Origin: an uncultured Gemmatimonadales bacterium
GTDB taxonomy: Bacteria; Gemmatimonadota; Gemmatimonadetes; Gemmatimonadales; GWC2-71-9
Assembly (NCBI GenBank): GCA_963821385.1
Contig: CAWGDK010000005.1
Coordinates: forward strand, 31,538 to 95,537
DNA length: 64,000 bases
Direction of reading: 5' to 3'
Shown: piece after piece, positions 7,185-30,595 of the stretch
How positions within the stretch are numbered: the first letter of the stretch is position 1
How the letters are laid out: each line of letters opens with the position of its first letter
The notes under the pieces: generated by a model
Told to the model about the DNA's origin: nothing
What the model saw: the letters and a program-made list of their open reading frames with translations, nothing else
Database searches by the model: none
Position numbers and translations under genes: made by a program

Positions 7185-7197
7185 GGAAGGCGGATCC

Positions 7198-8702: not shown

Positions 8703-9380
8703 GTGCTGATCACGTTTTCCGGGTTGGACGGCGCCGGCAAGTCGACGCTCATAGACTTCCTCCAGGGCGCGCTCGAACAGCAGCGACGCCGGGTCGTCGT
8801 GTTGCACCTGAACGACCAGGTGGGTGTCTACGCGTTGCTCCGGTCGTTGCGCGACCGCGTCCGCGGTCAGCACTCGGATCAGCTGGCCCCTGGTGCTCCC
8901 GATCCCAAGTCCCAAAAGCTGCAGCGCCCGCCGCCGCGGGGACTGCGCGGCGCTCTGGGACGGGCCCGCACCGCTCTGCTCTGGAACAAACCGCTGCGGC
9001 GCGGCCTGTACCTAATCGATCTGGCGATCTTCATCTGCTACCGCACCTATCTGGAGAGAGTCCGCGGTCGCGTCCTGATCATGGATCGCTATTTCTACGA
9101 CACCCTGGTCGACGTCGCCAATGGTCGCGATCGGCTCTGGACGCGGGTGCTCGAACGCCTGACGCCACGGCCGACGGTCCCGGTGTTTCTCGACATCACC
9201 CCCGAAGAGTCGTTTCGCCGCAAGCGCGAGTTTTCGATCGAGTATCTGCGGCTGCGGTCCGATGCCTATCGCCACGTGTTCGCACGGGTTCCCGGCGCCG
9301 TCTGCATCGTCAACGAAGATCTCGGGCGCACGCAGGCGATGTTGCTCGGCGCCGTCCGCGCTCGCGGGGGACTCTCGTGA
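8703..9380 (+). CDS. thymidylate-kinase-like P-loop kinase
   Basis: MLITFSGLDGAGKSTLI at the N-terminus and DRYFYD motif. SD-like AAGGGAGA lies upstream of GTG 8703. Confidence 0.65.
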   Translation: MLITFSGLDGAGKSTLIDFLQGALEQQRRRVVVLHLNDQVGVYALLRSLRDRVRGQHSDQLAPGAPDPKSQKLQRPPPRGLRGALGRARTALLWNKPLRRGLYLIDLAIFICYRTYLERVRGRVLIMDRYFYDTLVDVANGRDRLWTRVLERLTPRPTVPVFLDITPEESFRRKREFSIEYLRLRSDAYRHVFARVPGAVCIVNEDLGRTQAMLLGAVRARGGLS

Positions 9381-12725: not shown

Positions 12726-12731
12726 ACCGCC

Positions 12732-13526
12732 ATGCCCGCACCGCAGATCGCCGGGTTGATGTATCACGAAGTCACCGACGCGCCAGCCACCACGGGTTTT
12801 CAGCGACCCGGCGCGGTCGCGTATAAGCACTCCGTCGCGGCATTCGCGGAGCACCTGGCCCGCATCGCCGACGCACCGCACCGTCCCAGCCTCATTACCG
12901 ACGTGGATCTCCACGGCCCCGGGCGGCACGTCGTGTTGACCTTCGATGACGGGGGCAAGAGCGCGCTGGTGGCCGCGGAGCTGCTCGCCCGGCGGGGCTG
13001 GAAGGGCCATTTCTTCATCGTGACGAGCCTGATCGGCACCCCGACGTTCCTGGATGCGGCTGGCATTCGCGCCGTGCATGACGCAGGCCACCTGATCGGC
13101 AGCCATTCTCATACGCACCCGAACATCTTTCGCGACCAGTCGACGGCTCGCATGGTGGAGGAATGGCGCGTCAGTGCCGATATCCTGAGCCAGATCACCG
13201 GCGATCTGTGTGCGTCGGCATCCGTTCCCGGCGGAGACATATCGGCACGGGTGCTGGAGTCGGCGGACGCGGTGGGAATCCGCTATCTGTTCACATCAGA
13301 GCCGTGGCTGAGGCCACGCAGGATCGGCGACTGCGCGGTGCTGGGGCGTTACAGCGTCAAAGTGACTACGTCGGCGGCCCAAGTGAGCGCACTGGTGCGT
13401 TTCCGCGGCTGGGGGCGCGCCCTGGTGCGGCGACGCCTGAAGGTCTGGGCCACGCGGGCCCTGCCTCCTTTGTATCGACTCTATATCCGCGCCCGCACCA
13501 CTCCGGGGACCGAGCCGTCCGGCTGA
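12732..13526 (+). CDS. polysaccharide deacetylase (NodB homology domain)
   Basis: VLTFDDGGKS and GSHSHTHP metal-binding motifs. Confidence 0.8.
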   Translation: MPAPQIAGLMYHEVTDAPATTGFQRPGAVAYKHSVAAFAEHLARIADAPHRPSLITDVDLHGPGRHVVLTFDDGGKSALVAAELLARRGWKGHFFIVTSLIGTPTFLDAAGIRAVHDAGHLIGSHSHTHPNIFRDQSTARMVEEWRVSADILSQITGDLCASASVPGGDISARVLESADAVGIRYLFTSEPWLRPRRIGDCAVLGRYSVKVTTSAAQVSALVRFRGWGRALVRRRLKVWATRALPPLYRLYIRARTTPGTEPSG

Positions 13527-16500: not shown

Positions 16501-17778
16501 ACCGTTCACGGCCGGCGTGACCGTGACGGCGGCCCCTTGCGTGAGACTGACGCCGCCGACCGATGCCCCGACGGTCTTGGATTCCGCAGCGGTCGAGCTT
16601 AGCGATCCCGTGGCCACCCCGACCGCGTTCGTCGGACCGACCGGTTGCGTCAGCGTGTTGCTGGAGCCGGTCGCCGTAAGGACCACACTGGCCCCCACCA
16701 CCGGATTGTCGAACGCGTCCCGCGCCGTCACGGTGATCGCCGTCGAGCTGGCACCAGTGCTGGCCATGATCGAAGTCGGCGCGGCTACGACGGTGGAGTG
16801 TCCTGGTGCCACCGGCCCCGCCAGGATCGTGATAGCGCTGGAGGTATCCGCCCCCAGGCCCGATCCGGAAGTGGTCAGGGTATAGGCCGTGCTCGCCTTG
16901 TCGAGACTCAAATCGGCAAAGTTGGCGGTGCCGCCGATCGCTGTGACCGTGGTGGTACCCGACAGGGTCCCGCCAGCCGGATTCGCGGCCAGCCCGATGG
17001 AAAGAGGACCGCTATACGTCGTCGCGAGGTTCCCCAAGACATCCCGCGTATTCACCACAATCGCCGGCGCGATCGCGACGCCGGCCCGCGCGGTGCCGGG
17101 GAGGGCCGTGAAGGCCACGCGGGCGGCAGGACCGGCGACAACATCGAACGACGCGCTCGCCGTTGAGGTGAGCGAGCCCGATGTCACGTACAACGTGTAG
17201 CCTGCCCCGCTCTTGTCGATGTGGAGATCAGCGAATGCCGCGACGCCATTCACGGCGGTCATGACGGTGGTCCCGCCGAGGGTCGTGCTCCCGGGATTCG
17301 TGGCGATCGCCGCGGTGATGACGCCCGAGAACGAGGTCGCGGTATAGCCGTGCGCGTCGCGCGCCGTCACCTCGACCCCGGGCGCGATGGACGATCCCGC
17401 GGTCACACTGCTCGGCTGCATGGTGAACACGAGGGCGGCCGCGGGACCCGCGATCACCGTGACGCCAACCGAACCAGTCTTGCCCTCGCTCGTCGCCGTG
17501 ATGGTCGCGGACCCGAGCGTCACCCCGCCCACCAGTCCCGCGGCACTCACGGTCACGACCGCGGAGTCCGTGGAGCTCCACGTAACGGTACGACCAGTCA
17601 GCACGGCGCCATTGGCGTCGCGCAACGTCACCTGCAGCTGGATCGCGGTCCCCACGGCGAACGGTGCCGGCACGGGGACTTCGACTGTCTCGACTGGCGT
17701 CGGCGGTCCCGACGAGTCGGTCGCACAGGCAGCCAGTACGGCGGCGAGAACCAACGTGCGACGCACGGATGCGGCCAA
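13555..17778 (-). CDS. giant surface lipoprotein: Big_2 module plus about 10 Ig-like repeats plus C-terminal metallophosphoesterase
   Basis: Signal/lipobox LVLAAVLAAC. Big_2-like TVTWSSTDSAVVTVSAAGLV..ITATSEGK. Two alternating ~95-aa repeat types. C-terminal motifs GAGDIADC, LGDNVYPNG, GNHDY, VLNSN, GHRHVYE. SD GAGG lies 5 nt upstream of TTG 17778. Confidence 0.85.
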   Translation of the reverse strand: MAASVRRTLVLAAVLAACATDSSGPPTPVETVEVPVPAPFAVGTAIQLQVTLRDANGAVLTGRTVTWSSTDSAVVTVSAAGLVGGVTLGSATITATSEGKTGSVGVTVIAGPAAALVFTMQPSSVTAGSSIAPGVEVTARDAHGYTATSFSGVITAAIATNPGSTTLGGTTVMTAVNGVAAFADLHIDKSGAGYTLYVTSGSLTSTASASFDVVAGPAARVAFTALPGTARAGVAIAPAIVVNTRDVLGNLATTYSGPLSIGLAANPAGGTLSGTTTVTAIGGTANFADLSLDKASTAYTLTTSGSGLGADTSSAITILAGPVAPGHSTVVAAPTSIMASTGASSTAITVTARDAFDNPVVGASVVLTATGSSNTLTQPVGPTNAVGVATGSLSSTAAESKTVGASVGGVSLTQGAAVTVTPAVNGVLVFTSQPATAVAGATITPAVKAAVRDAFGNTFTTFTGNVTVALGANPGSDALTGTMTKAAVAGEATFTDLVLIKAAAGYTLTATAGGITGGTSNPFTITPGVVSATHSSAVVAPAGITASSGTSAATITVTARDAFDNPVAGATVALAASGTGNTLTQPAGLTGAGGVATGSLSSTASGAKTVSATINSVLVAQQPTVTVAPAGVAASKSLVSASPGSIAASFGGVTTAITVTAKDTFDNAIPGLAVVLAATGSGNTLNQPVAMTDANGVASGTMSSTAAGAKVVSAAVGGTPVTQTAGVTVEPGEVSVSQSTVVAIPTSVVASAGSNPVTITVTARDEQGNPIPNVNVVLNATGTSNTLTQPAGPTGSNGTATGTLTSTLTGVRILSATIDGTGVTQTDTVTVTPGNPTSTGFLVQPTSMTVGTIMAPPVQVEIRDQFGNRVTSASNGVVLTFGTNAGGGTLTGGAGSASNGVATFSSLSINQTGSGYTLKASVGGLPDVVSTAFNVTSGVVSAAQSTVVAAPASITAGSGSSTITVTARDAGGFAVVGATVTLSVSGTGNTVTQPSAPANGSGVATGSLSSTVAGNKTVTATANGITITQKPVVAVTAGPVSASVSTVSASPASIVAGSGTSTITVTVTDAFGNPVSGSNVVLAATGSGNTLTQPSGPTGSNGVATGALASTATGTKTVSATAGGLALTQTAAVTVTSAGSSVTFVGAGDIADCGSNNDAATAAVINAMPGSPPVFVLGDNVYPNGKASEYTNCYNPTWGAFKSRTHPSAGNHDYNTANAAGYFGYFGAAAGTPGQGYYSFDLGSWHIIVLNSNINSDAGSAQDNWLLADLAAHQNVCTLAYWHHPLYSSIGGTGSGGAVTTSARRFWDDLYAAGADLVLNGHRHVYEVIAPMKPDGTADPSNGIRTIIAGMGGESGGDLTNIFPLSEVREGHTYGVLKLTLSATSYTWQFVPVAGSSYTNSGSGNCH

Positions 17779-17820
17779 TCAGACCTCAGGTCGCGATGTG
17801 TGGCGTGAATGCAACACAGC

Positions 17821-17835
17821 ACCCCAAAATGGGGT
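17821..17835 (-). terminator. possible weak hairpin terminator between the two giant genes
   Basis: Minus strand ACCCCA-UUU-UGGGGU followed by GCUGUGUUGCAUU. It lies 60 nt after the stop at 17895. Confidence 0.3.
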
Positions 17836-17894
17836 CGGCCCGAATTCTAGTGGCAAGATTCAGACCTGACAGGGGTTCGTCTGTGAAGGGCCCT

Positions 17895-20800
17895 TCAATG
17901 ACAGGAGCTGGTGCCGGAATCCGCGTACGTCCCCTGCCCCTGCGCGTGCAGGAACTCCCAGCGATAGGAGTTTGCGTACAGGGTCAGCCGGATTACACCC
18001 CGCGAGAAATTGCCGTTGTCGCTGGCCTCGACGTTGGGCGGGGAGTTGACGTAGTTGGCGTGGGTCTCCCCCCCACCGGTCCCCACGATGAACTCCCGGA
18101 TGCCGGAGGCGCTCGCATTGCCCAGGGAGTCTTGCTGGGCAAATCGCTCATACAAGTGATCGTGCCCGTTGATGACGACCTCGGCCCCACCGTTCTGCAA
18201 CGCCTGCCACAGGCGTCTGATTCGCGACGATCCGCCATTCGACGGCCCGGATGTGAACAAGGCGCGGTGCCAGATGGCCAGGACACACTGGTTGGCCCGT
18301 CCCACGAGATCGCTCTGCAACCACGTCAGCTGGCCGGATGCGGGGTTGGTGACCCCGGAATCGCTGTTGAGGACGACGACGTGCCACGTGCCCAGGTCAA
18401 AACTGTAATACCCGAATCCGTTGCCCAGTGGATCGGCGACCGCCGGGCCGAAGTAGGCCATGTAGGGTGCGGCTGTGCTGCTGCTGTCGTATTCGTGATT
18501 CCCGCTCACCGGACGGGTCCGCGCCTTGTGCCGCCCCCAGGTGGGATCATAGCAATTCGTGAAATTCGTGGCCGTCCCATTCGGATACGCGTTGTCGCCG
18601 GCGGCGAACACGACGCCCGGAAGGCTGTCGACCTGATTGGCGGTAGCGTCGTCTCGAATCGAGTTGCAGTCGGCGATATCGCCGGCACCGACCAGGGTCG
18701 GTACGACTACCGCGGCTCCCGTCTGGATGATGGCGGTCCCTCCCGCCGTCGCCGAAATCGTCTTGGCCTCGACCACGGAGGAATTGAACGCCGCGGCAAA
18801 CACCCCGCTCGCATTCGTGTTGCCCGACGCGGATGGGCTGAATCCATTCCCTGTCCCGCTCGCCGACAGCACGACGGGCGACCCGCTGACGAGATTGCCG
18901 AACTGGTCCTTGACGGTGACCGTCACGGTGGACGCGTGGATGGCGGGAACGCAGGAGAACGCGCACTGGCCGATGGTGTCGGTGGCGGCGACCAGGCTCG
19001 AGAGCGAGGCATCGACCCCATCGGCGGCGATGGCAAAAGCCGCGCTGGTGACGGGCGTCAATCCACTGGAGGTCGCGTGCAGGGTGTAGCCCGCAGCGGC
19101 TTTGTCGATACTGAGGTTCGAGAAGGTCGCCACCCCGCTCGCCGCGGAAACCGAGGTGGTCCCGGACAGATTGCCGCTTCCCGGGTTCGCCGCCAGGGCC
19201 ACGGTGACGGTGTTCGAGGCGGTCGTGACGCGGTTGCCACCGAGGTCGCGAATCTCCACTCGCACCGGCGGTGCGATCGCGCCCCCCGCAGTCGCGTCGG
19301 AAGGCGGCGTCAGGAATCCCAGCTGGGCGGTCGCACCGACGCTGATATTGAACGTGCTCGAGGTGGCATCGTCGAGTCCCGAGGCCGTCGCCGTCAGCCG
19401 ATACCCCGTGCCCGCGCTGTCGATCTGCAGGGAGCTGAACGTCGCCACGCCACCGGTGGCGGCGAGAGTAGTGGTGCCAGAGAGCGTTCCATTGTTCGGG
19501 TTCGTGCCGATCGCAACCGTCACACTATTGGTGGCTCCGCTCACGCGGTTTCCGCCGGCGTCCTGGATCTCGATCTTCACGGCCGGTGTCAGTATCGCGC
19601 CACCGGCAGCGTTCGGCGGTTGAACCAGGAAGCCAAGCTTCGCGGCCGCCCCGACGGTGATGCTGAACGTGGTCGACGCTGCGCCCGCCAGCCCGCTGGC
19701 GGTGACGTTCAACGTATAACCCACGCCCGCGCTGTCGATGCTCAGGGTACTGAACGCCGCCACGCCGCCGACGGCGGCCACCGTCTTGGTCCCGGAGAGC
19801 ACCCCGCTGTTCGGATTGTTCCCGAGCGAGACCGTCACACTGTTGGTCGCGCCCGGCACCAGATTCCCCCCCGCGTCCTGAATCTCCACGTGAACGGACG
19901 GGCTGATCGGGGCGCCGCCGGGCGTCGTGGACGGCTGGACGACAAACGAGAGTTTGACCGCAGTCCCGATGATGATGTCGAAGCCGCTCGACGTCGACCC
20001 CGTAAGCCCTGTGGCGGTCGCGCTCAGGGTGTAGGCGGCCCCGGCGTTGTCGATGCTCAAATCCGAGAATGTCGCCAATCCGCCTGCGGACGAGACGGGA
20101 GTCGTCCCGGACAACGTCCCGCTCCCCGGGTTGTTCGCAATCGCCAACGCGATACTGTGCGAACCGGTGGTGACGCGGTTCCCACCGGCATCCCGGACCT
20201 CCACCTGTACCGCCGGCGCGATCGTCGCCCCGCCCCCGGTGTTGGACGGTTGCGTGCGGAATCCAAGTCGTGCCGCCGGCCCGACGGCCACGCTGAATAC
20301 GGTTGATGTGTCTCCGGTCAGCCCTGTCGCTGCGGCGGTCAGCGTGTAGCCCGTCGCCGCGCTGTCGACCGACACGTCATTGAAGGTGGCCACACCGGAG
20401 GATGCGGCTCGGGAGGTCGTGCCGCTGAGGGTTCCGTTGTTCGGGTTGGCGCCGAACGCCAGCGTAATGTTGTTGGAGGCCGCCGTCACTCTGTTGCCGC
20501 CACCGTCTTGGACCTCGACTTGGACCGCCGGGGAGATCGTGGCGCCACCGTTGGCGCTCGAAGGCTGAACCAGGAATGCCAAGTGTGCCGCCGCGCCGAC
20601 GGCGATGGTGAAGGCCCCCGATGTCGCACTGCTCAATCCTGTGGCGGAGGCCGTCAGGGTGTAGCCCGTGCCGCTCTTGTCGATGCTCAGACCGGCGAAT
20701 GTCGCAATCCCGGACACCGCCGAATGGAGCGTCGTGCCCGACAGGGTGCCGCTCGCCGGGTTGGTTCCGATCGCCACCGTGACGGTCCCCGTGAAGCTCG

Positions 20801-22490
20801 TGTCCGTATTACCGAGACTGTCCCGCGCGGTGACTTGCACGGCCGGGGTGATCGGCGACGCGGCAGCGGTGTTGGACGGTGAGGTGGTGAACACCAGTTG
20901 CGTGGCCGCTCCCGGCGTCACGGCGAAGCTGATGCTCGTATCCGGGACGAGCCCGCTGCTTGTCGCGCGAAGTCGATAGCTGCCGCCGGACTGGTTGACG
21001 CTCAGGTCGTTGAACGTCGCGACCCCGGCCGAGGCGGCCCTGCTCTTGGTCCCCGACAACGTTGCGCCACCGGCGTTCAAGAGCGCGATGGTCACACTGT
21101 TGTTCGCGGTGGCGACGCGATTGCTGAAGGCGTCCAGCACCTCGACCTGGACGGCGGGGGCGATGGTGATTCCCGCGGTCGTGCCCGTGGGGTCCGTGAG
21201 GAATGACAACCGGCTCGCGACTCCCGGCGTGATGCTGAAGTCGTTCGAGACCGCCGTGGTGAGCCCGGTGGCCGCGGCCGCGAGCGAATAGCCCGTGCCG
21301 GCCTTGTCGATACTCAGGGACGAAAAGGCCGCCACGCCGGCCACCGCCGGCAGGGTCGTGGTACCGGAGAGCACCCCGCCGCTCGGGTTGTCGAGGATCG
21401 CAATGGTTACACTATTCGTCGCCGTCGTCTCCCGATTGCCGAAGGCGTCTTGGATCTCTATCTGCACGCCTGGCGTCACCATCGCGCCCGCGACGGTCGT
21501 CGACGGTTGGGCGGCAAACGCCAGCACCGCCGCCGCCCCGGGGGTGACGGTGATGGTGTCGGTTTGGGTGACCACGACGCCGGCGATGGTGGCGGATGCC
21601 ACTTTCGTCTCCGCCACGGTCGAGCTGACCGCACCCGTCGCTACGCCCGCGACGTTGGTGGTGCCCACCGGCTGTGTGATGGCATTGCCCGATCCCGTTA
21701 CCGAGAGAACAACGGACGCGCCGGCGACGGGATTCCCCTGGGAGTCCCGCGCGGTGACGGTAATCGTCGCCGCACTCGCCCCCGAGCTGGCGGTGATCGC
21801 CGTTGGCGCCGCCGTGAGGCTCGACTGCGTGGCGGAAATCCCCCCCGCGATGACGTTGAAGGCGCTCGACGTGGTGCCCGTGAGCCCGGTGGCGCCCGCC
21901 GTCAGCGTGTACCCTGTGCCGGCCTTGTCGAGACTGAGGTTGCCGAATGTGGCCACTCCAGCCACGGCGGCCTTGGTCGTCGTCCCTGAGAGCGTGCCGC
22001 CCGCCGGATTGGCGCCGATGGCGATCGTGATGGTGGCGGTAAACGAGGTCGCGGTGTTGCCGAACGCATCTTGGGCGTTCACCTGCACCGCTGGGGCGAT
22101 CGGCAACCCCGCGCCCGTGGTCGTCGGCTGAACCACGACCACGAGTCGCGTGGCCGTGCCGGCGTTCACCGTGATGATCGCCGTCCCGGTCTTCCCTTCG
22201 CTGGTGGCGGTGATCGTGACGACACCGGGACGCTTCCCGCTCACCAGGCCCGTCGCATCCACCGTGGCACTGGTTGTGTCGCTGCTGGACCAGGCAATGG
22301 CGCGTCCGGTGAGACTGGTGCCGTTCGCATCCTTCAGAACGGCCGTCAGCTGCAGGGTGGCGCCAGCCGCTAGCGGCGCGGTGAGCGGGCTCAGGGTGAC
22401 GGACGCCACCGGCGCCGCCGGCCCGATATCCGAGCCGCACGCGACGGCGAGTATCGCCACCCAGCACCGAAATCGGGTCGCCCGATTCAT
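17895..22490 (-). CDS. giant surface lipoprotein: Big_2 module plus about 11 Ig-like repeats plus C-terminal metallophosphoesterase (paralog of 13555..17778)
   Basis: Start taken at ATG 22490 (MNRATRFRCWVAILAVACGS lipobox, GGGAGG upstream); the longest ORF extends to 22553. C-terminal motifs GAGDIADC, AGDNAYPNG, GNHEY, VLNSD, GHDHLYE. Confidence 0.85.
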   Translation of the reverse strand: MNRATRFRCWVAILAVACGSDIGPAAPVASVTLSPLTAPLAAGATLQLTAVLKDANGTSLTGRAIAWSSSDTTSATVDATGLVSGKRPGVVTITATSEGKTGTAIITVNAGTATRLVVVVQPTTTGAGLPIAPAVQVNAQDAFGNTATSFTATITIAIGANPAGGTLSGTTTKAAVAGVATFGNLSLDKAGTGYTLTAGATGLTGTTSSAFNVIAGGISATQSSLTAAPTAITASSGASAATITVTARDSQGNPVAGASVVLSVTGSGNAITQPVGTTNVAGVATGAVSSTVAETKVASATIAGVVVTQTDTITVTPGAAAVLAFAAQPSTTVAGAMVTPGVQIEIQDAFGNRETTATNSVTIAILDNPSGGVLSGTTTLPAVAGVAAFSSLSIDKAGTGYSLAAAATGLTTAVSNDFSITPGVASRLSFLTDPTGTTAGITIAPAVQVEVLDAFSNRVATANNSVTIALLNAGGATLSGTKSRAASAGVATFNDLSVNQSGGSYRLRATSSGLVPDTSISFAVTPGAATQLVFTTSPSNTAAASPITPAVQVTARDSLGNTDTSFTGTVTVAIGTNPASGTLSGTTLHSAVSGIATFAGLSIDKSGTGYTLTASATGLSSATSGAFTIAVGAAAHLAFLVQPSSANGGATISPAVQVEVQDGGGNRVTAASNNITLAFGANPNNGTLSGTTSRAASSGVATFNDVSVDSAATGYTLTAAATGLTGDTSTVFSVAVGPAARLGFRTQPSNTGGGATIAPAVQVEVRDAGGNRVTTGSHSIALAIANNPGSGTLSGTTPVSSAGGLATFSDLSIDNAGAAYTLSATATGLTGSTSSGFDIIIGTAVKLSFVVQPSTTPGGAPISPSVHVEIQDAGGNLVPGATNSVTVSLGNNPNSGVLSGTKTVAAVGGVAAFSTLSIDSAGVGYTLNVTASGLAGAASTTFSITVGAAAKLGFLVQPPNAAGGAILTPAVKIEIQDAGGNRVSGATNSVTVAIGTNPNNGTLSGTTTLAATGGVATFSSLQIDSAGTGYRLTATASGLDDATSSTFNISVGATAQLGFLTPPSDATAGGAIAPPVRVEIRDLGGNRVTTASNTVTVALAANPGSGNLSGTTSVSAASGVATFSNLSIDKAAAGYTLHATSSGLTPVTSAAFAIAADGVDASLSSLVAATDTIGQCAFSCVPAIHASTVTVTVKDQFGNLVSGSPVVLSASGTGNGFSPSASGNTNASGVFAAAFNSSVVEAKTISATAGGTAIIQTGAAVVVPTLVGAGDIADCNSIRDDATANQVDSLPGVVFAAGDNAYPNGTATNFTNCYDPTWGRHKARTRPVSGNHEYDSSSTAAPYMAYFGPAVADPLGNGFGYYSFDLGTWHVVVLNSDSGVTNPASGQLTWLQSDLVGRANQCVLAIWHRALFTSGPSNGGSSRIRRLWQALQNGGAEVVINGHDHLYERFAQQDSLGNASASGIREFIVGTGGGETHANYVNSPPNVEASDNGNFSRGVIRLTLYANSYRWEFLHAQGQGTYADSGTSSCH

Positions 22491-22525
22491 GCTCCTCCCG
22501 TCTCTACCGTAGATTGATCGGCGCC

Positions 22526-23749
22526 ATGCCGACCCGTCCGCCGCTGCTGCCACGCTCGATCGCCCGGCTCGCCCTCGGGGCCGCGCTCGGATTCATTCTC
22601 CTGACCACGCTGGCACCCTTCCCCGGCGCACGCGCGCCGGACTTCGTCGGGTGTCTGATTTGCGGCACCCGAGGCTCGGCGGACGCGCTCGTCAATCTCC
22701 TCCTGTACATACCCCTTGGCGCCGCCCTGATGATAAACGGACGGGCGGGCGGACGGACGGTCGCCCTGGCCGGAATGTTGTCGGCGGGTATCGAATTCCT
22801 TCAGATCTTCATTCCGGGCCGTGATCCCAGCCTGGGAGACGTATTCTTCAATACCGGCGGCGCCGCGGTGGGCCAGGTCACCGTGCACTTCCTGGCGCGA
22901 TGGGCGACTCCGGACGCGCGCACCGCCGCACGCCTTTCGGTCGCCGCCGCCTTGACGGCGCTCGGTGTGTTCGGTCTGACGGGATGGCTGCTGCGGCCAG
23001 CGCTCCCCGTATCCGCGTTTCGCGCCTGGTACACGGCCGATCGACCAGATCTCGAGTTTTACCACGGCCGTGTGCTGAGCACGACCCTGGGGGCGGTTCC
23101 GTTCAGCACCGCCGACGTTCCGAACCCCGGTGAAGTGCGCCACCTGCTCCTCACCGGGGCCCCCTTGCATATCCTGGCAGTCGCCGGCCCGCGCGTCCGC
23201 GCGCTCGGCCCGTTGTTTGTGATCGAAAACCGATGGGGAGAAGAGATCTTTCTCCTCGGCCCTGATCGCGACGACCTCGTGCTGCGGTATCGCACGCGAG
23301 CCGCCGCGCTGCGACTCGATCAGCCGGACCTGCGGCTGCGTGACGCCTTTGCCGGAGTCGCTGCCGGCGACACCCTGCGAATCGAGGTGAGGCGGGAGCA
23401 CGGTGCGTATTGCCTCGCGGTCAACCGAGCAGGTGCGTGCGGACTCGGGTTCACGCTGGGCAGCGGCTGGGCCGTGCTGTTGTACCCGAGACACTTTCCG
23501 CCGTGGCTGCAGCAGCTGTTGAGCATCGGGTGGGTGGCCGGCATCGCCTTCCCGGTGGGATTCTGGGCGCGGCGGCGTTGGGAAAGCGGGCTCGCCTGGG
23601 TCGTGCTCGGGAGCGGGCTGGCTCTCGTCCCACTGTTCACAGCCCTGGTTCCGACGCCGGCCAACCAGTGGGTGGGCGCGGGCGCCGGGGCGCTGTCCGG
23701 AGTGGCGCTCGGGTTGCTGGTCGGTCGCCGGAATACGCAGACGCGCTAG
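22526..23749 (+). CDS. VanZ-like family membrane protein with extended C-terminal region
   Basis: N-terminal VanZ-like pattern (LLTTLAPFP..NLLLYIPLGAAL..IEFLQIFIPGRDPSLGDV) and terminal TM helices. ATG 22526, or TTG 22514. Confidence 0.6.
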   Translation: MPTRPPLLPRSIARLALGAALGFILLTTLAPFPGARAPDFVGCLICGTRGSADALVNLLLYIPLGAALMINGRAGGRTVALAGMLSAGIEFLQIFIPGRDPSLGDVFFNTGGAAVGQVTVHFLARWATPDARTAARLSVAAALTALGVFGLTGWLLRPALPVSAFRAWYTADRPDLEFYHGRVLSTTLGAVPFSTADVPNPGEVRHLLLTGAPLHILAVAGPRVRALGPLFVIENRWGEEIFLLGPDRDDLVLRYRTRAAALRLDQPDLRLRDAFAGVAAGDTLRIEVRREHGAYCLAVNRAGACGLGFTLGSGWAVLLYPRHFPPWLQQLLSIGWVAGIAFPVGFWARRRWESGLAWVVLGSGLALVPLFTALVPTPANQWVGAGAGALSGVALGLLVGRRNTQTR

Positions 23750-25188
23750 CGCGCCCGACTCGTCAGGAGAAACGTGTCGAACGCGGGGCCCGTTCGCGGC
23801 GGCGTCCGGGTCACCCGTCCCTGCGGGACGGGCGGAGCGATGCCGGTCAGCGGAACACGGATCGGTGTACCCCGGTACACCCCACTCACCACCGGGGGAT
23901 CAAACAACGCCTGCACGTTGCGTATCTCGTAGCGATCGCCGGCCCGCAAGACCGTGCCGACATCCACCGCCACAGCGGCGCGCCCCTCCCAGTTGTACAC
24001 GACGATGTGCGCGCGGCCGGCTTCGTATTTATTGGCGCGCACAAACACCCGTGTGAGCGCCGGTCGCTCCGATTCTACACGATCCCGGCCACCGAGGCCG
24101 CTGGCGTGTTGCCACCCATTCCAGTCGTACGCCCGGTCCTCGAATCGCCACGCTCGCGCAGTGGCATCCCGCCCCCAGTGGTTTCCCGACCACTGGTAGT
24201 GCTGGTCGAGCCTCGCCCCGCCTACCTTTACGACGTCGCGACTTCCGATAAACGTGTTTCCCTCAACGATCGCGTGCATCCAGGGCTCGACCATCTCGAG
24301 CCCGATCTTGCCTCCGGCGGCATAGTTGTCGCGCAACACCAGGTCGCGGTTGTTTTGGGGAGCGTACTTGCCAACCCGCAGATTGATCCCGTCCCGACCG
24401 GAGAAGTAGAGCATGTTGCCGATGCCGGCCATCCCCTCGGTGGGGACCGGCGCGTTGAAGATCAGGTTCTCTCGCGCGGCGGCCACGGTGGAAATCGTTC
24501 CGTTGTTGAAGGCCACGTTTCCTTCGACCCGGATATTGCGAATGGTCGGATTGTTGCGACTGGCGTAGACCTGAATGCCGCGGGCGAGGTTGTTGAAGAA
24601 CACATTGTCCGCGATCACCTTCGTGCCAGTTTCATTGTGCACGTACACGCCGTGATCGAGGTTTTCATGCGTCCCGTTGTTGTAAATGATGCACCCGTAC
24701 AACTCGGCATCGACCGCCGGAGTCCAGAAACTGACTCCCTGCGTCCCTGCGTCGTGAATGATCAGATTGATGAACCGGCCGTGAGCGGTGTTGGCTTGCA
24801 GCCCGTACGTCTCCGGGGTCGATTGCATGATCTCGAATCCCCAGAACGTCAGGTAGGAACCCTCCGCACGCAGGGTCCCGTCGATCGTGGCCCGTTCGCC
24901 CGGCCACTGCCGAAACACGATGGCCCGGCCCGGTAATCCCGCGAGCGCCGTCCGGAACGCGCCGCGATAGGTCCCGCCCCGCAGCCACACCGTATCACCG
25001 GGCTGCAAACGCCCCGCCGCGCCGGACAGGGCGGTCTCCAGCGTCCACGGATGTTCCGCCGAGCCCGTGCCGCCGGCGGACGCCGTCGGCGCGACGTAGT
25101 GGCCGCCATGCGCCGGGATGGCCGGGACGGTGCCCGCCGGTGAAGGCCGCGCAATCACCGCCGTGGCTGCCAGGACGGCAACCACCAT
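23746..25188 (-). CDS. secreted right-handed parallel beta-helix protein (pectate-lyase-fold), paralog 1
   Basis: Colinear with 25205..26722 (PGDTVWLRGGTYRGAF/AGDTVWIRGGTYPGSF, PGERATIDG, repeated NN/HD rungs). Start taken at ATG 25188 (MVVAVLAATAVIA signal), just after the upstream stop; the longest ORF reaches 25305. Confidence 0.7.
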   Translation of the reverse strand: MVVAVLAATAVIARPSPAGTVPAIPAHGGHYVAPTASAGGTGSAEHPWTLETALSGAAGRLQPGDTVWLRGGTYRGAFRTALAGLPGRAIVFRQWPGERATIDGTLRAEGSYLTFWGFEIMQSTPETYGLQANTAHGRFINLIIHDAGTQGVSFWTPAVDAELYGCIIYNNGTHENLDHGVYVHNETGTKVIADNVFFNNLARGIQVYASRNNPTIRNIRVEGNVAFNNGTISTVAAARENLIFNAPVPTEGMAGIGNMLYFSGRDGINLRVGKYAPQNNRDLVLRDNYAAGGKIGLEMVEPWMHAIVEGNTFIGSRDVVKVGGARLDQHYQWSGNHWGRDATARAWRFEDRAYDWNGWQHASGLGGRDRVESERPALTRVFVRANKYEAGRAHIVVYNWEGRAAVAVDVGTVLRAGDRYEIRNVQALFDPPVVSGVYRGTPIRVPLTGIAPPVPQGRVTRTPPRTGPAFDTFLLTSRAR

Positions 25189-25204
25189 CGGCCACGCCGG
25201 CGTG

Positions 25205-26722
25205 CTACGGAGCCGCACTCGTGAGCAGAAAGACATCGAAATCCGGACCGGTCGTGGGCGGCAGCCGCTGCATTGAGCGCCCGATCGTCGGCGGCGGGGC
25301 CACACCGTTCATGGGGATCGCGATGGTGCCACCCGCATAGGTCCCCGACACGACGGGGGCATCGTACACTCGCTGGACGTTGCGGACTTCGTAGTGATGC
25401 CCCGGGGTCACGATGCTCGAGACATCGACGTTCACCGGGTTGTCATGGCCGAAATTGTAGACCACGATGAAGGCTCGTCCCGCCTCGTACTGGTTGGGCC
25501 GCAGGAACACCCGCGTCGCCGTCGGTGCCCCGCTGACCACAGAGTCGGTCGCCCCCAGACCGGTGGCCGCTTTCCAGGCGGCGAACGAATAGCCGAGGCC
25601 ATCCTGCTCCCATGCGTTCGCGGATGAATCGCGGTGATAGGTGTTCCCCGACCAGGTATAGGTGTTGACCAGAGGCCCACCCGTATGCACCACGTCGGTC
25701 GAACCGATAAAGACGTTGTTCATCACCGTGGCCTGCGCCCACTGATACTGCATTTCGAGCCCGACCGTCCCGCCCACGGCGAAATTGTTCTCGATGTCGA
25801 TACCCTTGTTGAGCAGCGCACTGTCGGACACGTCGTAGTTGCCAAGCCGGAAATGGATACCGTCTTCGCCGGGCGAGAAGTACAGCAGGTTGTCTCTTGC
25901 CACCATGCCGGTAATCACGGTCTGCGCGCTCATCAAGAGATTCACCTCGCTGGAGCCCGTGGAGATGGTGCCATTGTTGAACGAGATGTTGCCTGCGACC
26001 TCGAAGTTTTGGATGGGACTTGTACCGCCTTCATACACCTGGATGCCGCGAGCGAAATTGTTGAAGAAAACGTTGTCCGTGATGTATTTGGTGCCGGCAG
26101 TCGAATTGTGTGCGTAGACACCGTGATCGAGGTTGTCGTGGAAGCCGTTGTTGTAGACGATGCTGCCGTACAGCTCGACGCCATTGCCGGAACCGGTCGC
26201 CATGCTCACACCCGAGGTCCCGGCGTCGTGCAGCACCAGATTGATAAACTTGCCGTTCAACGTGTTCGCCTCGAGCGTCCGGTCCACCACCTGGATCGGA
26301 TGGGACTGCATGATCTCGAACCCCACGAACCACAGGTTCGAGCCGGTCGCGGCCAGGGAGCCGTCGATGGTCGCTCGCTCTCCCGGATACTGACGGAACT
26401 GAATCGGCAGACCGGCTTGACCGTTGAGCGACGTGCGGAAACTCCCCGGGTACGTGCCGCCCCGAATCCAGACGGTATCGCCCGCCTGCAACTGGTGGAC
26501 GTGTCCACCCGCCAGGGCCGTGGCCAGGTCCCAGGGCGCGTCGGTGGCCCCCGAGCCGGACGTCAGCCCGTACGGCGGGGGATACACGTAGTAGCCCGCA
26601 TGCGTCCCAGGGGGAGGCGGAGGAGGCGGGGGCGGGGGCGGCGTCCCGCCGTCGGTCTTGCAGCCAGCCACCAACAGGGCGCCAACGCACAGCAAGAGCC
26701 CCATTGGGGCCCGATAGGGCAT
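25205..26722 (-). CDS. beta-helix lipoprotein with poly-proline linker, paralog 2
   Basis: MPYRAPMGLLLCVGALLVAGC lipobox, P12 linker, then a beta-helix core with repeated rungs (IVYNNGFHDNLDHGVY, FFNNFARGIQVY, ISFNNGT). The ORF track start GTG 26731 is also possible. Confidence 0.75.
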   Translation of the reverse strand: MPYRAPMGLLLCVGALLVAGCKTDGGTPPPPPPPPPPPGTHAGYYVYPPPYGLTSGSGATDAPWDLATALAGGHVHQLQAGDTVWIRGGTYPGSFRTSLNGQAGLPIQFRQYPGERATIDGSLAATGSNLWFVGFEIMQSHPIQVVDRTLEANTLNGKFINLVLHDAGTSGVSMATGSGNGVELYGSIVYNNGFHDNLDHGVYAHNSTAGTKYITDNVFFNNFARGIQVYEGGTSPIQNFEVAGNISFNNGTISTGSSEVNLLMSAQTVITGMVARDNLLYFSPGEDGIHFRLGNYDVSDSALLNKGIDIENNFAVGGTVGLEMQYQWAQATVMNNVFIGSTDVVHTGGPLVNTYTWSGNTYHRDSSANAWEQDGLGYSFAAWKAATGLGATDSVVSGAPTATRVFLRPNQYEAGRAFIVVYNFGHDNPVNVDVSSIVTPGHHYEVRNVQRVYDAPVVSGTYAGGTIAIPMNGVAPPPTIGRSMQRLPPTTGPDFDVFLLTSAAP

Positions 26723-26935
26723 CACGATCACAACCCCCGATTCGAAGGACTACAGGACTGGAAGTCGGGTCACCGGCTCGCGGGGGCGAGCGCCCCGGCC
26801 CAGGAGGCCGGGACAACCCATCCGTCGCGTGAAGCAAGAACTTAGCCGGGCCGCCCCCACCGGCCCCAGGTCCTGAGGCCTTCCCCAATCGGACCAAACT
26901 GTAGACCCGATGCAACAGGGAGTGAGCGCCCTCAG

Positions 26936-28454
26936 CTATCGCTCGTAGGCGCCCAGGTCGGCTCCCTGCCCCCGCGCGCGGCAGAGGCCGTCGATATCGA
27001 ACGGCGCCGCGTACGTCGCATCGGCCTGATCGATAGCGGGGCTTCCGGCCTTCAGATGCAGGTCGTTGGCGTAGGCCTGATGCGTGGTCGACGGGGTGGA
27101 GGCTGTCGGGTTGACCAGGAACGGATCGGCCACGACGTTGCCGACGATGGTGGCATTGGTGTTCCAGTGACTGGTCCCGTCGTTGCCGTTGTTCCAGAAC
27201 ATGTTGTGGATCTCGACATTGCTGCTGCCGCCACTGGATCCGCCGGTATTGATCCCCACCCCGTCGTTCACGTTGCCATTATTGACGACGATGTTGTTCG
27301 CGAACACCCAATCGTGCGTGCTTTCGGCGATGTCCATGCCGGACCGGCCGTTGCCGACGACCGTATTGTTGACGACGAGGATGTGATTCGCACTGAACCG
27401 CGCCGAGAGACCTTTGGCGCGATTGTGCTCCAGCACGTTGTTCGCCACGACCCCTCGGGTCCCGTCGTGATAGTAGATCCCGTGCGATGTGTTTTCCTGA
27501 CTGGGGTCGTTGAACCCGCCGTTGTCGTGGATGTAGTTGCCCAGAATCCAGATGTCGTCCCCCCCGGCCGCGATCCCGGCATGCCAGCCGCCGTGAAACA
27601 CTTCCGAGTTCGATACTTCGATATGGTGGCTGGCCCCCGGATCCATCTGGACCAGGTTTTCTCCCTGCCGGGAGGACGCCCCCCATGGACCACAGCTCGG
27701 GCCCTCGACCACGACACTCGATAGCCGGAAATACGATCCGGACAGTCGAATCTGCCCGTGCAACACGGCGCGTTCCCCGGCATACCCCTGTACCGTGATC
27801 GGCGCCGCGGGCGCTCCCGCCCGTTTGAATGTCGACGCCGTACAAAAGGCGCCGTACGTCCCAGCCCGCAGATACGCGATCTGCCCCGGTTGGAGCGCAT
27901 CGAAGGCCTTCTGCAGTGTCTTCCATGGCGCCTGAAGCGTACCCGGATTGGCATCCGACCCCGCGGTGGCGGAGACGTAAAACGCCGTCCCCGTGGACAA
28001 CGGCATCCGTGGGTAGATCGCACTCGGCCACGGATTGGGGCACCCGGTGGCGGGCGGCGGCGGCGGCGGCGGGGGGGGGCGGCGGGGGCGGCGGTGTCGA
28101 CCCCGTCACCTGCACCGCCGCGGACGCGGATTGATTCTCACAGGTCGCGGTGATTGTGACCGTGCCTCCGGCCATGCCATAGACCAGACCACTGGCATCG
28201 ACGGTGGCCACATTGGGATCGCTGCTGGCCCACGTCACGACGCGGTTCTCCAGCGGCGCGCCGCTCGAGTCCTGGGGGGTGGCGTGCAGCTGCACGCTTT
28301 CGCCCGCCGTCACGGTCGCATCGGCCGGTGTCACGGCGACCGTCGCGACCGGCGGACCCGCAGGCCCCGCCGTGCGATCGAGCACACAGGCAGGCATCAA
28401 CAGACACAAGGCAAGCAGGGTCACAACAACGGTGTGTTGGCGATGCTGAAGCAT
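26936..28454 (-). pseudogene. Big_2 - polyPro - beta-helix lipoprotein (paralog 3), reading frame broken by +1 nt in a C9 run
   Basis: ORF from 28454 gives signal LALCLLMPAC plus a Big_2 domain plus STPPPPPPPP, then nonsense. The beta-helix frame (ORF 26936..28006) is open upstream through PPPPPPPPPATGCPNPW to the same run (28071-28079). The span is 1519 nt = 3n+1. SD GGGAGG lies 7 nt upstream of ATG 28454. Confidence 0.7.
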
Positions 28455-28564
28455 AAACGACCTCCCGCGTCGGCGTGAGCGGCGGTGTGGTGGATGGCCG
28501 ACTTACGGCGGAAGGAAGGCGGACCACGCGGAGCGACCGGCCGCCTCGTCCGACCGAAGTCGAA

Positions 28565-28654
28565 TCGCTGGCGGCCCGGCTGGCCTGGCGGAGACATCCG
28601 CGGTAGCCCCGTGACTCTGCGTCACCGCCTTTCGACGGCTTTGCTCTGAGCAGC
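28565..28654 (-). promoter_or_regulatory. GEMM-I class cyclic-dinucleotide riboswitch aptamer (copy A)
   Basis: Minus strand reads CGCUG-CUCAGA-GCAAA-GCCGUC-GAAA-GGCGGU-GACGCAGAG-...hairpin...-AGCCGGGCCGCC-AGCG. It matches the GCAAA / GNRA hairpin / GACGCAAAGC / AGCCGGGCUGCC blocks of c-di-GMP-I. Covariation is seen against copies B and C. Confidence 0.75.
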
Positions 28655-28673
28655 GTCCTGCTGTGGCAGCTGC

Positions 28674-28712
28674 TCCCACGGCGCGATGCCGCTGCGGCAT
28701 CGCGCCCGTGGG
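28674..28712 (-). terminator. strong GC hairpin immediately after the Big_2-metallophosphoesterase stop
   Basis: CCCACGGGCGCGAUGCC-GCAGC-GGCAUCGCGCCGUGGG on the minus strand (about 16 bp with one bulge). It starts 16 nt after the stop at 28728. No U-tract. Confidence 0.45.
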
Positions 28713-28727
28713 GCAGATTCGTCGTGC

Positions 28728-30146
28728 CTAGTGGCACGTTCCGCTGCCGGTGTCCGTGAACGACTGGCCGGCAACGGGGACAAACTCCCAGGCATAGGTG
28801 CCCGGCCCGAGCGTGAACTTCAGGACCCCAAACGTGGTCCCGTTGAACACCTCACTGTTGGCCAAGGGCGTTCCCTGCCCGTAGTGGCTCTCCCCGCCCG
28901 TTCCGGCAATGAATTCGCGGATCCCGTTGACCGGGTCCGCGTCGCCGCTCGGCGTCTGGAGAGCGAACCGCTCGTAGTTATGCTCGTGACCAGCGAGAAC
29001 GATTTCGGCGTGGAAGTCGTACAGCGCCTGCCACAACGGTTGGGCCGAGCTCAGGCTGCCGTGGTGGCTGCCGCTCGAGAAGCGGGGTTTGTGCCAGTAC
29101 GCCAGCGTGCAGGTTTTGGACGACGCGGCGAGGTCTGCGCGCAGCCACGTCTCCTGCGCCGATCCAGCGCTCATCGACGTTTCGCTATTCAGCGAAACGA
29201 TGTGCCAGTCCCCTAGGTCGTAGCTGTAGTAGCCGCGCCCTGATGGTCCAGCGAGATCGCCGAAGTATCCGTAGTAGCCGGCCGCGCCACTGGTGTTGTA
29301 GTCGTGATTTCCCGGGGCCGGCCGCGTGCGCGTCTTGTGTCGTCCCCAGGTGGGATCGTAGCACTGGGAGAACTGCGAAGCGGTACCGCTGGAGTACACG
29401 TTGTCGCCCAGCGTGTAGACTGTTCCCGGAATGCCGTCGAGCAGCGCCGCGGTGGCCTCATCGTTGTCGTTGCCACAGTCGGAAATGTCTCCGGCGCCCG
29501 CGAAGACGATGCCGCCCGCCGTGCTCATCACAGTCACGCTCGCCGTGTCGGCCAGGGTGCCGCCGGCCTCGAGCGCGATGACGCGGTACGTTCCGGCAGC
29601 GGATCCGGCGGTGTAGAGACCCGTGGCCGTGATCGACCCGCCCGTCGCGTCATAGCTCACCACCGCTGCCACGGAATCACCGTTACTCATCCGGCCGTAC
29701 ACGGCGAACTGTTGCGTGCCGGCGATTGAGACTGTCACGGCTGCCGGCACGAGCACCACCTGCGCGAGAACGGCGGGTCCACTCACCGTGACCGTGACGT
29801 CCGCGGTATCGGCCAGCGTCCCACCCACCTGCGTAGCGATCACTTGATAGGTGCCGGCGACTCCGCCCGCGATGTAGCGGCCATCGGCGTCGATGGTCCC
29901 ACCAGTGGCGCTCCACGCGACGGTCACGGGCTGGGTATCGCCTTGCGCCGTGCGCGCGGCGGCCTCGAACTGCAACGATTGGCCGGCGGGGACATTCGTG
30001 GTTTCGGGTGTGATGACGATTTCCTCGACATCGGTAGGACCGCTGGGTGGTCTGGAGCGCTCGCAGGCGGTCGAGATGGCGATCAGGACGACGAGCGGGT
30101 GCGCGAGCCATGTGCGCCCTCGCGTCCCAGTGCGTAGATGGTGCAT
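28728..30146 (-). CDS. lipoprotein: three Big_2-like modules plus C-terminal metallophosphoesterase (short paralog of the giants)
   Basis: Lipobox LIAISTAC. C-terminal motifs GAGDISDC, LGDNVYSSG, GNHDY, SLNSE, GHEHNYE and a C-terminal SGTCH as in the giants. SD AAGGAGG lies 6 nt upstream of ATG 30146. Confidence 0.85.
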   Translation of the reverse strand: MHHLRTGTRGRTWLAHPLVVLIAISTACERSRPPSGPTDVEEIVITPETTNVPAGQSLQFEAAARTAQGDTQPVTVAWSATGGTIDADGRYIAGGVAGTYQVIATQVGGTLADTADVTVTVSGPAVLAQVVLVPAAVTVSIAGTQQFAVYGRMSNGDSVAAVVSYDATGGSITATGLYTAGSAAGTYRVIALEAGGTLADTASVTVMSTAGGIVFAGAGDISDCGNDNDEATAALLDGIPGTVYTLGDNVYSSGTASQFSQCYDPTWGRHKTRTRPAPGNHDYNTSGAAGYYGYFGDLAGPSGRGYYSYDLGDWHIVSLNSETSMSAGSAQETWLRADLAASSKTCTLAYWHKPRFSSGSHHGSLSSAQPLWQALYDFHAEIVLAGHEHNYERFALQTPSGDADPVNGIREFIAGTGGESHYGQGTPLANSEVFNGTTFGVLKFTLGPGTYAWEFVPVAGQSFTDTGSGTCH

Positions 30147-30165
30147 TGGGCACCTCCTTCACGGG

Positions 30166-30217
30166 ACAACAACGCACGGGCCGCCAACGTCGACCCGTGT
30201 CGAAGCGCTGGCGGCCC
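30166..30217 (-). terminator. putative riboswitch-B expression platform (terminator stem using the aptamer 3' strand)
   Basis: Minus strand GGGCCGCC..UCGAC-ACGG-GUCGA..GGCGGCCC followed by GUGCGUUGUUGU. Confidence 0.45.
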
Positions 30218-30297
30218 GGCCGACCTGGCAGGATGGCTCCCGCGGTAGTCCCGTGGCTCTGCGTCACCGCCTTTCGGCGGCTTTGCTCTGAGCAGCG
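30206..30297 (-). promoter_or_regulatory. GEMM-I class cyclic-dinucleotide riboswitch aptamer (copy B, proximal of tandem pair)
   Basis: Same block structure as copy A. The P2 hairpin is GCCGCC-GAAA-GGCGGU. The P3 helices differ from copy A by compensatory changes. Confidence 0.75.
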
Positions 30298-30339
30298 ATC
30301 GAAGCGATGCGAGGCTGAGTTTCGACTGGACGAGGGCTT

Positions 30340-30388
30340 ACAACGAAAGGGCCGCCCCCTTCGACCAAGGTCGAATCGCTGGCGGCCC
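30340..30388 (-). terminator. putative riboswitch-C expression platform (intrinsic terminator using the aptamer 3' strand)
   Basis: Minus strand GGGCCGCC-AGCGAUUCGACCUUGGUCGAAGGG-GGCGGCCC followed by UUUCGUUGU. Confidence 0.5.
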
Positions 30389-30469
30389 GGCGGGCATGGC
30401 GGAGGAGGATTCCGCGGTAGCCCCGTGACTCTGCGTCACCGTCTTTCGACGGCTATGCTCTGAGCAGCG
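30377..30469 (-). promoter_or_regulatory. GEMM-I class cyclic-dinucleotide riboswitch aptamer (copy C, distal of tandem pair)
   Basis: Same block structure. The P2 hairpin is GCCGUC-GAAA-GACGGU (U-A where copy A has U.G and copy B has C-G). Confidence 0.75.
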
Positions 30470-30595
30470 ACATCAGCATCGTGTGGCCCGCGTACACTCG
30501 GCGGCGAACGGAGGTTCCGCGAAATACAGAAGTCGTCGTGGTGCCGCAGAATGGGTGACATGAGTCACGCCAAGCCCGGTAGCATGCCGGACGCG

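Follow-up and report, generated by a model that had tools for sequence, protein, structure and literature searches.

A conserved GEMM-I riboswitch family with adenine at the Vc2 G20 position ahead of secreted-protein genes in Gemmatimonadales

Which signal is read by a GEMM-I riboswitch aptamer that carries an adenine in place of G20, the nucleotide of the Vc2 aptamer that contacts one base of the ligand? This question is raised by a locus of an uncultured Gemmatimonadales bacterium (assembly GCA_963821385.1, contig CAWGDK010000005.1, positions 31,538 to 95,537), a stretch of 64,000 nucleotides referred to here as the window, which bears three such aptamers on its minus strand. To our knowledge, no cyclic-dinucleotide biology has been described in the Gemmatimonadales, a major soil group. 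An initial annotation of the window, made from its letters, proposed that the aptamers might bind cGAMP (3',3'-cyclic GMP-AMP), selectively or besides cyclic diguanosine monophosphate (c-di-GMP). Demonstrated cases of riboswitches sensing cGAMP are so far confined essentially to Geobacter and its relatives, and their discoverers predict more of them elsewhere (PMC8835794). In this work we placed the three aptamers within their family, followed the adenine through related genomes and weighed the possible ligands, of which c-di-GMP appears the most probable.

The three aptamers are full-length members of the GEMM-I, or c-di-GMP-I, family. The Rfam model of this family, RF01051 (gathering score 35), recognized all three above its threshold and over its full length (model positions 1-87), and it was a better match than RF03167 in each case. 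Aptamer 1, a single copy, lies at 28567..28655 on the minus strand (56.9 bits). The two others form a tandem pair on the same strand, with aptamer 2 as the gene-proximal member at 30207..30297 (55.0 bits) and aptamer 3 as the promoter-distal member at 30378..30469 (51.9 bits). A covariance model built from these three copies, with the P1 helix added and named R1, gave scores of 110.3, 110.6 and 111 bits, respectively. The copies share 92% identity in pairwise comparison, and in all of them P2 consists of 6 bp capped by a GAAA loop. In an alignment of 86 diverse aptamers, 92.7% of the cells were paired, compared with 66.3% in shuffles, the covariation score was 0.656 versus 0.217, and 24 of 26 pairs had changes on both sides. 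The three-helix junction, composed of P1, P2 with its GNRA loop and P3, is therefore upheld by compensatory changes. Within the Gemmatimonadales aptamers the paired fraction was 94.7%, with few changes.

An adenine at the equivalent of Vc2 G20 had been claimed for all three copies, and two alignments agree on it. Position 11 of RF01051, the unpaired base directly 5' of the paired GC of GCAAA, has a consensus G and is A in each window aptamer, and when the copies were aligned directly with the Vc2 crystal construct this A was found under G20. The Vc2 sequence used for the alignment was numbered from 8, and its letters fit the published contact list G14 C15 A16 C17 A18 G19 G21 C46 A47 A48 A49 G50 (PMC7288161). 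Two copies have the motif CAGA-GC-AAA and the remaining one has CAGA-GC-AUA, consistent with the CAGA-GC-A(A/U)A first annotated. On plus-strand coordinates, A20 is found at 30287 in aptamer 2 and at 30459 in aptamer 3, in line with the first reading; for aptamer 1, the position given then, 28644, is the G of the GC pair, and A20 itself is at 28645. The window aptamers thus lack the G20 that marks canonical c-di-GMP-selective aptamers, where it pairs with the other guanine at its Hoogsteen edge, and they possess the adenine (A14 of Gs1761) that marks the GEMM-Ib aptamers of Geobacter. The ligand-contacting bases besides position 20 are A47 and C92 (bioRxiv 871194), and both are canonical here: A47, the intercalator, at 28618, 30260 and 30432, and C92, the Watson-Crick partner of one guanine, at 28571, 30211 and 30382 (plus coordinates of aptamers 1, 2 and 3).

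How far this adenine extends was followed by way of a neighbouring gene. The riboswitches adjoin an HflX gene, whose best 80 relatives come almost all from Gemmatimonadales/Gemmatimonadota metagenome-assembled genomes (top identity 88% over full length, and 91% for one partial match), and R1 was run against the 1.13 Mb of contigs bearing these related loci. This search yielded 28 further full-length aptamers in 25 Gemmatimonadales contigs, mostly directly downstream of HflX. Together with the three window copies, A20 is present in 31/31 Gemmatimonadales aptamers, A47 and C92 are likewise invariant, and the junction strand CUCAGA is nearly so, the second A of GCAAA varying between A, U and G. 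A further seven aptamers of this type came from metagenome contigs; A20 is present in each of them and position 19 is G, A or U, bringing the total with A20 to 38/38. The model is not blind to G20, since it also picked up G20 aptamers at other loci, with 29-69 bits. In unselected GEMM-I cores from viral and prophage contigs, a small sample of 66 unique sequences, the ratio of G to A at position 20 was 57:7, so that A20 is a minority state of GEMM-I that has become fixed in this lineage. Among published GEMM-I aptamers its frequency is about 23%. Because A20 is invariant in all 38 sequences while the neighbouring base varies, its conservation is best read as the product of selection, not of chance.

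The aptamers are not found at every related locus. Five loci among the closest by HflX (L001, L002, L003, L004 and L008; 78-88% identity) gave no aptamer match downstream of this gene, yet more distant relatives have one, so the riboswitch-controlled cassette is not stably placed. A comparison of the leader with plasmids by blastn gave no match. In one relative, L017, the gene-proximal tandem copy (7008-7086) has decayed internally, keeping the P1 strands and the terminator arm, and now resembles a plain terminator behind one working aptamer.

The G that follows the intercalating A had been proposed as a second cGAMP-type cue. It is indeed present in all three copies (GACGCAGAG), but it turns out to be the G-C form of the first P3 pair. 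For each copy, the RF01051 alignment flags a mismatch, A-C, at the base of P3. We gathered G-containing variants from metagenomes by a pattern without base-pairing constraint, which returned 120 matches, most of them non-aptamer and filtered out. Covariation links the base after A47 to the 3' base assigned by Rfam as the partner of A49 (A/U 31, G/C 20, A/C 3, G/U 2); counted as a pair in the alignment of 86 aptamers (columns 54/152), the two bases gave AU 47, GC 21 and GU 4. In the window these columns correspond to G48 and C90 at 28617-28573, 30259-30213 and 30431-30384. This covariation makes the G48 and the Rfam mismatch one event, a first P3 pair of G-C instead of A-U with A49 bulged, and it supports a consensus structure in which the base preceding A49 pairs with the 3' strand, as A-U or G-C, while A49 itself, paired in RF01051, is bulged. 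The description of the Gs1761 structure as 'J2/3: A41; P3: A42-U73' (PMC6274999) agrees with this pairing. Outside this lineage, G48 accompanies G20 about as often as A20, and since it occurs with both and covaries with its 3' partner, it was ruled out as a cGAMP-type signature. We also set aside the Rfam mismatch as a feature common with wild-type Gs1761 (U72, C73), in which restoring the wild-type bases left the affinities unchanged (PMC6140456).

The sequences that follow the aptamers suggest how binding would be turned into expression. Nearly every aptamer of the family is followed by a segment of the form G-N-UUCGAC-NNNN-GUCGA-N(2-4)-(Y)UGGCGGCCCG-UUCGUUU, the GGCGGCCCG part of which is complementary to the aptamer 3' end CGGGCCGCCAGC, comprising the P3 3' strand, the junction strand J1/3 and the P1 3' strand. 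This anti-aptamer core was found in 28/32 related leaders, and in 24 of these 28 the 14 nt that follow it contain 5 or more U. For aptamer 2, the computed minimum-energy fold of 30140-30300 (-89.7 kcal/mol, z = -4.8) gives up P1 and P3 in favour of a hairpin of 12-15 bp, behind which lies UGCGUUGUUGU. In this predicted terminator (30163..30219, minus strand; terminator scan match 30199-30175), CCGGGCCGCCAGC, which covers the 3' strands of P3 and P1 together with J1/3, is paired to GUUGGCGGCCCG (core 30177-30185), and the tail UGCGUUGUUGU is followed by the ribosome-binding site GAAGGAGG and an ATG at 30146. The fold of 30310-30472 gave the same arrangement for the distal aptamer 3, with a predicted terminator-type hairpin at 30335..30388 on the minus strand (terminator scan match 30366-30350); its 5' arm GGGCCGCC is the aptamer 3' end, and the inner hairpin UCGACCUUGGUCGA, the 3' arm GGCGGCCC (30349-30356) and the tail UUUCGUUGU follow. 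Aptamer 1 also has an anti-aptamer hairpin in its computed fold (28523..28577, minus strand; 3' arm GGCGGCCGG at 28537-28545). This one is without a U-rich tail, with 3 T in the 14 nt after the stem compared with 5-8 in most relatives; candidate outputs after loss of the U-tail are Rho, translation or none.

From these features we infer that the aptamers resemble ligand-induced ON switches. The aptamer 3' strand (P3 3' side, J1/3 and P1 3' side) would pair alternatively with the downstream GGCGGCCC(G) segment, giving a GC-rich hairpin followed by a U-rich tract, at which transcription is predicted to stop when no ligand is bound. A bound cyclic dinucleotide would stabilise P1 and P3, which would withhold the 5' arm of the terminator and allow read-through. 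Two such units would act in series ahead of a phosphoesterase gene, and one ahead of a Big_2/beta-helix cluster. Tandem complete c-di-GMP riboswitches are a known arrangement (PMC12452182, PMC6456294).

What an adenine at position 20 does to ligand choice is known from published aptamers. As first annotated, this position separates the Geobacter GEMM-Ib aptamers from c-di-GMP riboswitches, and the A20G change in Gmet_0970 suffices to return selectivity to c-di-GMP (PMC6456294). The accompanying caution that A20 alone does not guarantee selectivity is equally well founded, as both ligands are bound by the Vc2 G20A mutant (c-di-GMP 53 nM, cGAMP 120 nM) and by Cbe 1-2, a natural A20 aptamer of Clostridium beijerinckii (c-di-GMP 30 nM, cGAMP 463 nM) (PMC6140456). 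For Gs1761 itself, the selectivity for cGAMP varies with the construct and the buffer, between about 1200-fold and about 3-fold (PMC6140456). Taken together, the published A20 aptamers span from an about 1200-fold preference for cGAMP to a 15-fold preference for c-di-GMP (PMC6140456, PMC6456294). In all c-di-GMP complexes adenine 20 is protonated at N1, as determined by nuclear magnetic resonance (PMC6140456).

Apart from the adenine, the pocket of the window aptamers is closer to that of Vc2. Eight pocket positions differ between Vc2 and Gs1761, without being established as defining the GEMM-Ib subclass, and at these the window matches Vc2 at 15, 17, 19, 21 and 46, Gs1761 at 20 and 91, and neither at 16. 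C15, C17, A18, G19, G21-C46, A47 and C92 all have the Vc2 letters. The closest counterpart is the Vc2 G20A mutant (PDB 3MUM, 4YB1), which has the same fold, shares the pocket letters at 15, 17, 18, 19, 21-46, 47 and 92 together with A at 20, and binds c-di-GMP and cGAMP in the same mode; there the adenine is a laboratory mutation, whereas here it is natural and conserved. The differences from Vc2 are U instead of A at position 16, G instead of A at position 91, G-C instead of A-U as the first P3 pair, and a different expression platform and host. With the GEMM-Ib aptamers of Geobacter (Gs1761 / GSUR3008, Gm0970) the window copies share A at the G20 equivalent, the A47 and C92 equivalents and the terminator-based ON-switch type, predicted here, often in tandem and upstream of genes for extracellular or surface proteins. 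In contrast, the remaining junction nucleotides are not Geobacter-like: the P1-P2 junction strand J1/2 is ACAAUA-like in Gs1761 (A9, A11, A12, U13, A14) and CUCAGA here, and the P2 closing pair, flipped to C15-G40 in Gs1761, is G-C. The hosts also belong to different phyla, Thermodesulfobacteriota for Geobacter and Gemmatimonadota for the window. Cbe 1-2, compared by position 20 only, is like the window aptamers a natural A20 aptamer from outside the Deltaproteobacteria; it prefers c-di-GMP, and its host is a Firmicute of low G+C. Through Cbe 1-2, A20 aptamers from beyond the Deltaproteobacteria were already documented. A pocket-variant relative of GEMM-I, c-di-GMP-I-GGC (RF03167), belongs to the same clan, CL00126, and its consensus differs in the junction after P2 (GACGCGAAG, compared with GACGCAAAG in RF01051), a change that we read as position 47 and not position 20.

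Since C92 is kept, one base of the ligand should be G. A20 may pair with the other base either as A, in cGAMP, or as G, in the latter case through an N1-protonated adenine. Because the rest of the pocket is Vc2-like, the window aptamers are expected to act, by analogy, like Vc2 G20A and Cbe 1-2, with nanomolar binding of both ligands. The conserved A20 would then set the affinity (nM instead of pM) and not change the signal. By this analogy, we consider c-di-GMP, bound by a dual-competent pocket of the Vc2 G20A type, to be the most probable physiological ligand, with a confidence somewhat above even.

Aptamers of both types occur together in some leaders. In a Gemmatimonadota-like metagenome contig (L214 5887-6142), a G20 aptamer, best matched by RF03167, comes after an A20-type RF01051 aptamer and the terminator of the latter, and directly adjoins the ribosome-binding site of a homologous gene for a Big_2-phosphoesterase. 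This tandem indicates that canonical G20 sensing exists alongside the A20 type, and the pair would be explained by two ligands as well as by one ligand sensed with two affinities; the leader may combine transcriptional with translational control, or two inputs. In other lineages (G+C 0.51-0.57), GEMM-I aptamers abut one another in twos or threes, with A20 and G20 copies in one array (A,G,G; A,A,G; G,A,G), at L213 1466-1860, L256 1587-1980, L204 3660-4009, L173 3016-3366 and L262 2830-3174. At a spacing of about 80-90 nt, the aptamers are too close together for each to have an expression platform of its own. The middle aptamers of L213 and L256, which come from unrelated metagenomes, have G and A, respectively, at position 20 and differ at only two other bases, which suggests that a change at this position is easily tolerated.

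A further question is whether enzymes that make the candidate signals are present. Hypr GGDEF enzymes, the GacA type, carry Ser or Thr in place of D344 of PleD, and DncV and the CD-NTases are other cGAMP synthases; HD-GYP enzymes with RxxQ/N are specific for cGAMP (bioRxiv 600031). A scan for the GG[DE]EF motif gave no match in the window, nor in the 80 related loci. Using phmmer and Pfam, a conserved protein with a receiver and a GGDEF domain was found in at least 12 related Gemmatimonadales contigs (for example, L036 100-1161, L038 1512-2834, L047 1239-2306, L040 1656-3053 and L016 262-1290), its gene lying 7-9 kb upstream of HflX; the window does not have this gene. The protein combines a degenerate active site (RLNHHAF and similar sequences for RYGGEEF) with an intact RxxD inhibitory site, and judging from these motifs it is likely a c-di-GMP receptor and not a cyclase. 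In plasmid 1 of Gemmatirosa kalamazoonensis (NZ_CP007129.1; positions 1-1,100,000 of 1,106,233 bp), a motif scan and a phmmer search using the PleD domain both gave no GGDEF protein, and no GEMM-I aptamer was found over the same interval. Overall, the window, the related contigs (1.13 Mb) and 1.1 Mb of the plasmid yielded no synthase of cGAMP or c-di-GMP, in a small and biased sample in which CD-NTases were not searched for. Among the papers searched, none dealt with GEMM-I or Hypr enzymes in Gemmatimonadota. GGDEF and HD-GYP proteins have been reported in Gemmatimonas aurantiaca (PMC2952852), and this report, the G20 aptamer of L214 and the receiver-GGDEF proteins back c-di-GMP signalling in the phylum.

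Several points weigh against reading the aptamers as c-di-GMP-sensing ON switches. No active diguanylate cyclase was found in the scanned sequence, so that c-di-GMP synthesis in this organism is an assumption. The ligand preference of the Gemmatimonadota aptamers is predicted from their letters, and because the selectivity determinants of the Geobacter aptamers beyond A20 are undefined (PMC6140456), the Vc2-like pocket is an argument from resemblance. The strict, order-wide A and its coexistence with a G20 aptamer in the L214 leader would also fit a distinct ligand. Finally, the terminator model does not fully cover aptamer 1, from which the U tract is absent.

A first alternative is that the aptamers are true functional analogues of the Geobacter GEMM-Ib class, selective for 3',3'-cGAMP, through which a Gemmatimonadales cGAMP pathway would control secreted phosphoesterases and beta-helix proteins. 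A20 is the defining nucleotide of GEMM-Ib and is invariant in 38/38 aptamers while its neighbours vary, the ON-switch terminator architecture and the tandem arrangement are as in Geobacter, and A20-type and G20-type aptamers in series before a homologous gene, as in L214, are what would be expected for different signals. Hammond's group, moreover, expects cGAMP riboswitches in other bacteria, cGAMP synthases and cGAMP-specific HD-GYP enzymes being widespread (PMC8835794). Set against this, A20 alone confers dual binding, and outside Geobacter a single A20 aptamer has been tested, which favours c-di-GMP 15-fold; the pocket is otherwise like Vc2 and not like Gs1761; neither a Hypr-GGDEF enzyme nor another synthase was found in the small, biased sample described above; and position 20 toggles between A and G in near-identical aptamers elsewhere. 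The adenine thus makes cGAMP binding possible, as had been supposed, and the cGAMP reading is in part supported; selectivity for cGAMP we regard as unlikely, though more probable than the other alternatives. We are equally doubtful of its extension to the whole order, in which the A20 GEMM-I family would consist of cGAMP-selective ON switches and leaders of the L214 type would integrate cGAMP and c-di-GMP as separate inputs.

Somewhat less probable still is a true dual input, with cells making both c-di-GMP and cGAMP and either one turning the genes on. Measurements on A20 aptamers have given dual binding as the default, one organism can produce both signals through Hypr GGDEF enzymes such as Bd0367, and arrays mixing A20 and G20 aptamers exist in other lineages. 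Such an input needs a source of cGAMP, however, of which none was found in the sequences scanned, and sequence cannot separate it from plain c-di-GMP sensing. We give very little credence to a different G-containing ligand, such as a linear dinucleotide (pGpG, pApG) or some other mixed cyclic dinucleotide that a CD-NTase would produce. High-affinity GEMM-I sensors do respond to pGpG at high concentration (PMC5041473), and Rfam separates pocket variants (c-di-GMP-I-GGC, -UAU) with unsettled ligands; yet A47, C92, the GAAA tetraloop of P2 and the whole junction are canonical here, and the single contact base that differs is one whose effect is known. Neutral drift or decay, which would make position 20 meaningless, finds an example in the L017:7008-7086 copy reduced to P1 and the terminator arm, but it is contradicted by the 38/38 conservation, by the compensatory changes that keep the helices, by the conserved expression platform and by the scores of all three window copies far above the Rfam threshold, and can be dismissed almost entirely.

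The genes that these riboswitches would control encode secreted proteins. The tandem pair precedes a gene for a protein of 472 amino acids (28728..30146, minus strand) with a signal- or lipoprotein-like N-terminus, immunoglobulin-like (Ig-like) Big_2 repeats (a weak match) and a calcineurin-like metallophosphoesterase domain (Pfam Metallophos, 4.2e-09) nearest to purple acid phosphatases (PDB match, 1.8e-09). The arrangement of this gene is orthologous in L006 and L017, and the regulated gene in relatives is either the same or encodes a protein of about 1000 amino acids with six Big_2 repeats and a PLC/acid-phosphatase-type domain. Aptamer 1 precedes a gene at 26936..28454 on the minus strand, delineated from open reading frames and a three-frame translation (Big_2 6.7e-15, Beta_helix 2.5e-08). 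It encodes a signal peptide, Big_2 and a poly-proline linker, after which a right-handed beta-helix domain follows in a different frame. The shift between the frames falls within a C9 run of the linker (G9 on the plus strand, 28071-28079), the Big_2 reading frame running from 28454 and the beta-helix reading frame to 26936; it could reflect an assembly error, a pseudogene or slippage-prone phase variation. Two beta-helix lipoprotein paralogs (23746..26731, minus strand; Pfam Beta_helix and NosD) follow on the same strand with short or overlapping gaps, and probably share a transcription unit with aptamer 1.

Downstream of the beta-helix genes lie two giant secreted proteins and an adjoining exopolysaccharide cluster (13555-22553 on the minus strand, and 1157-13526). 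The giant proteins, of 1407 and 1552 amino acids, contain many Big_1/Invasin_D3 repeats and a C-terminal metallophosphoesterase domain, and the cluster includes AsnB, a Wzx-type flippase, Wzy, a GT2 glycosyltransferase and a polysaccharide deacetylase. The presence of four Ig-like metallophosphoesterase paralogs within 17 kb is unusual. With Ig-like phosphoesterases, beta-helix proteins and an exopolysaccharide cluster nearby, the description of the targets as surface and matrix genes given in the initial annotation is a fair one.

The window and its relatives provide a natural and highly conserved set of A20 aptamers from a different phylum, with clean predicted ON-switch platforms and clear target genes, and their covariation would correct the family model in one respect, with the base that follows the intercalating A paired to the 3' strand and the next A bulged. 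A20 may here mark a new signal or a c-di-GMP sensor of lower affinity, and either answer would help to define the determinants of ligand choice beyond position 20. If the ligand is simply c-di-GMP, this would be an ordinary, nicely conserved riboswitch family controlling surface and phosphate-scavenging proteins.

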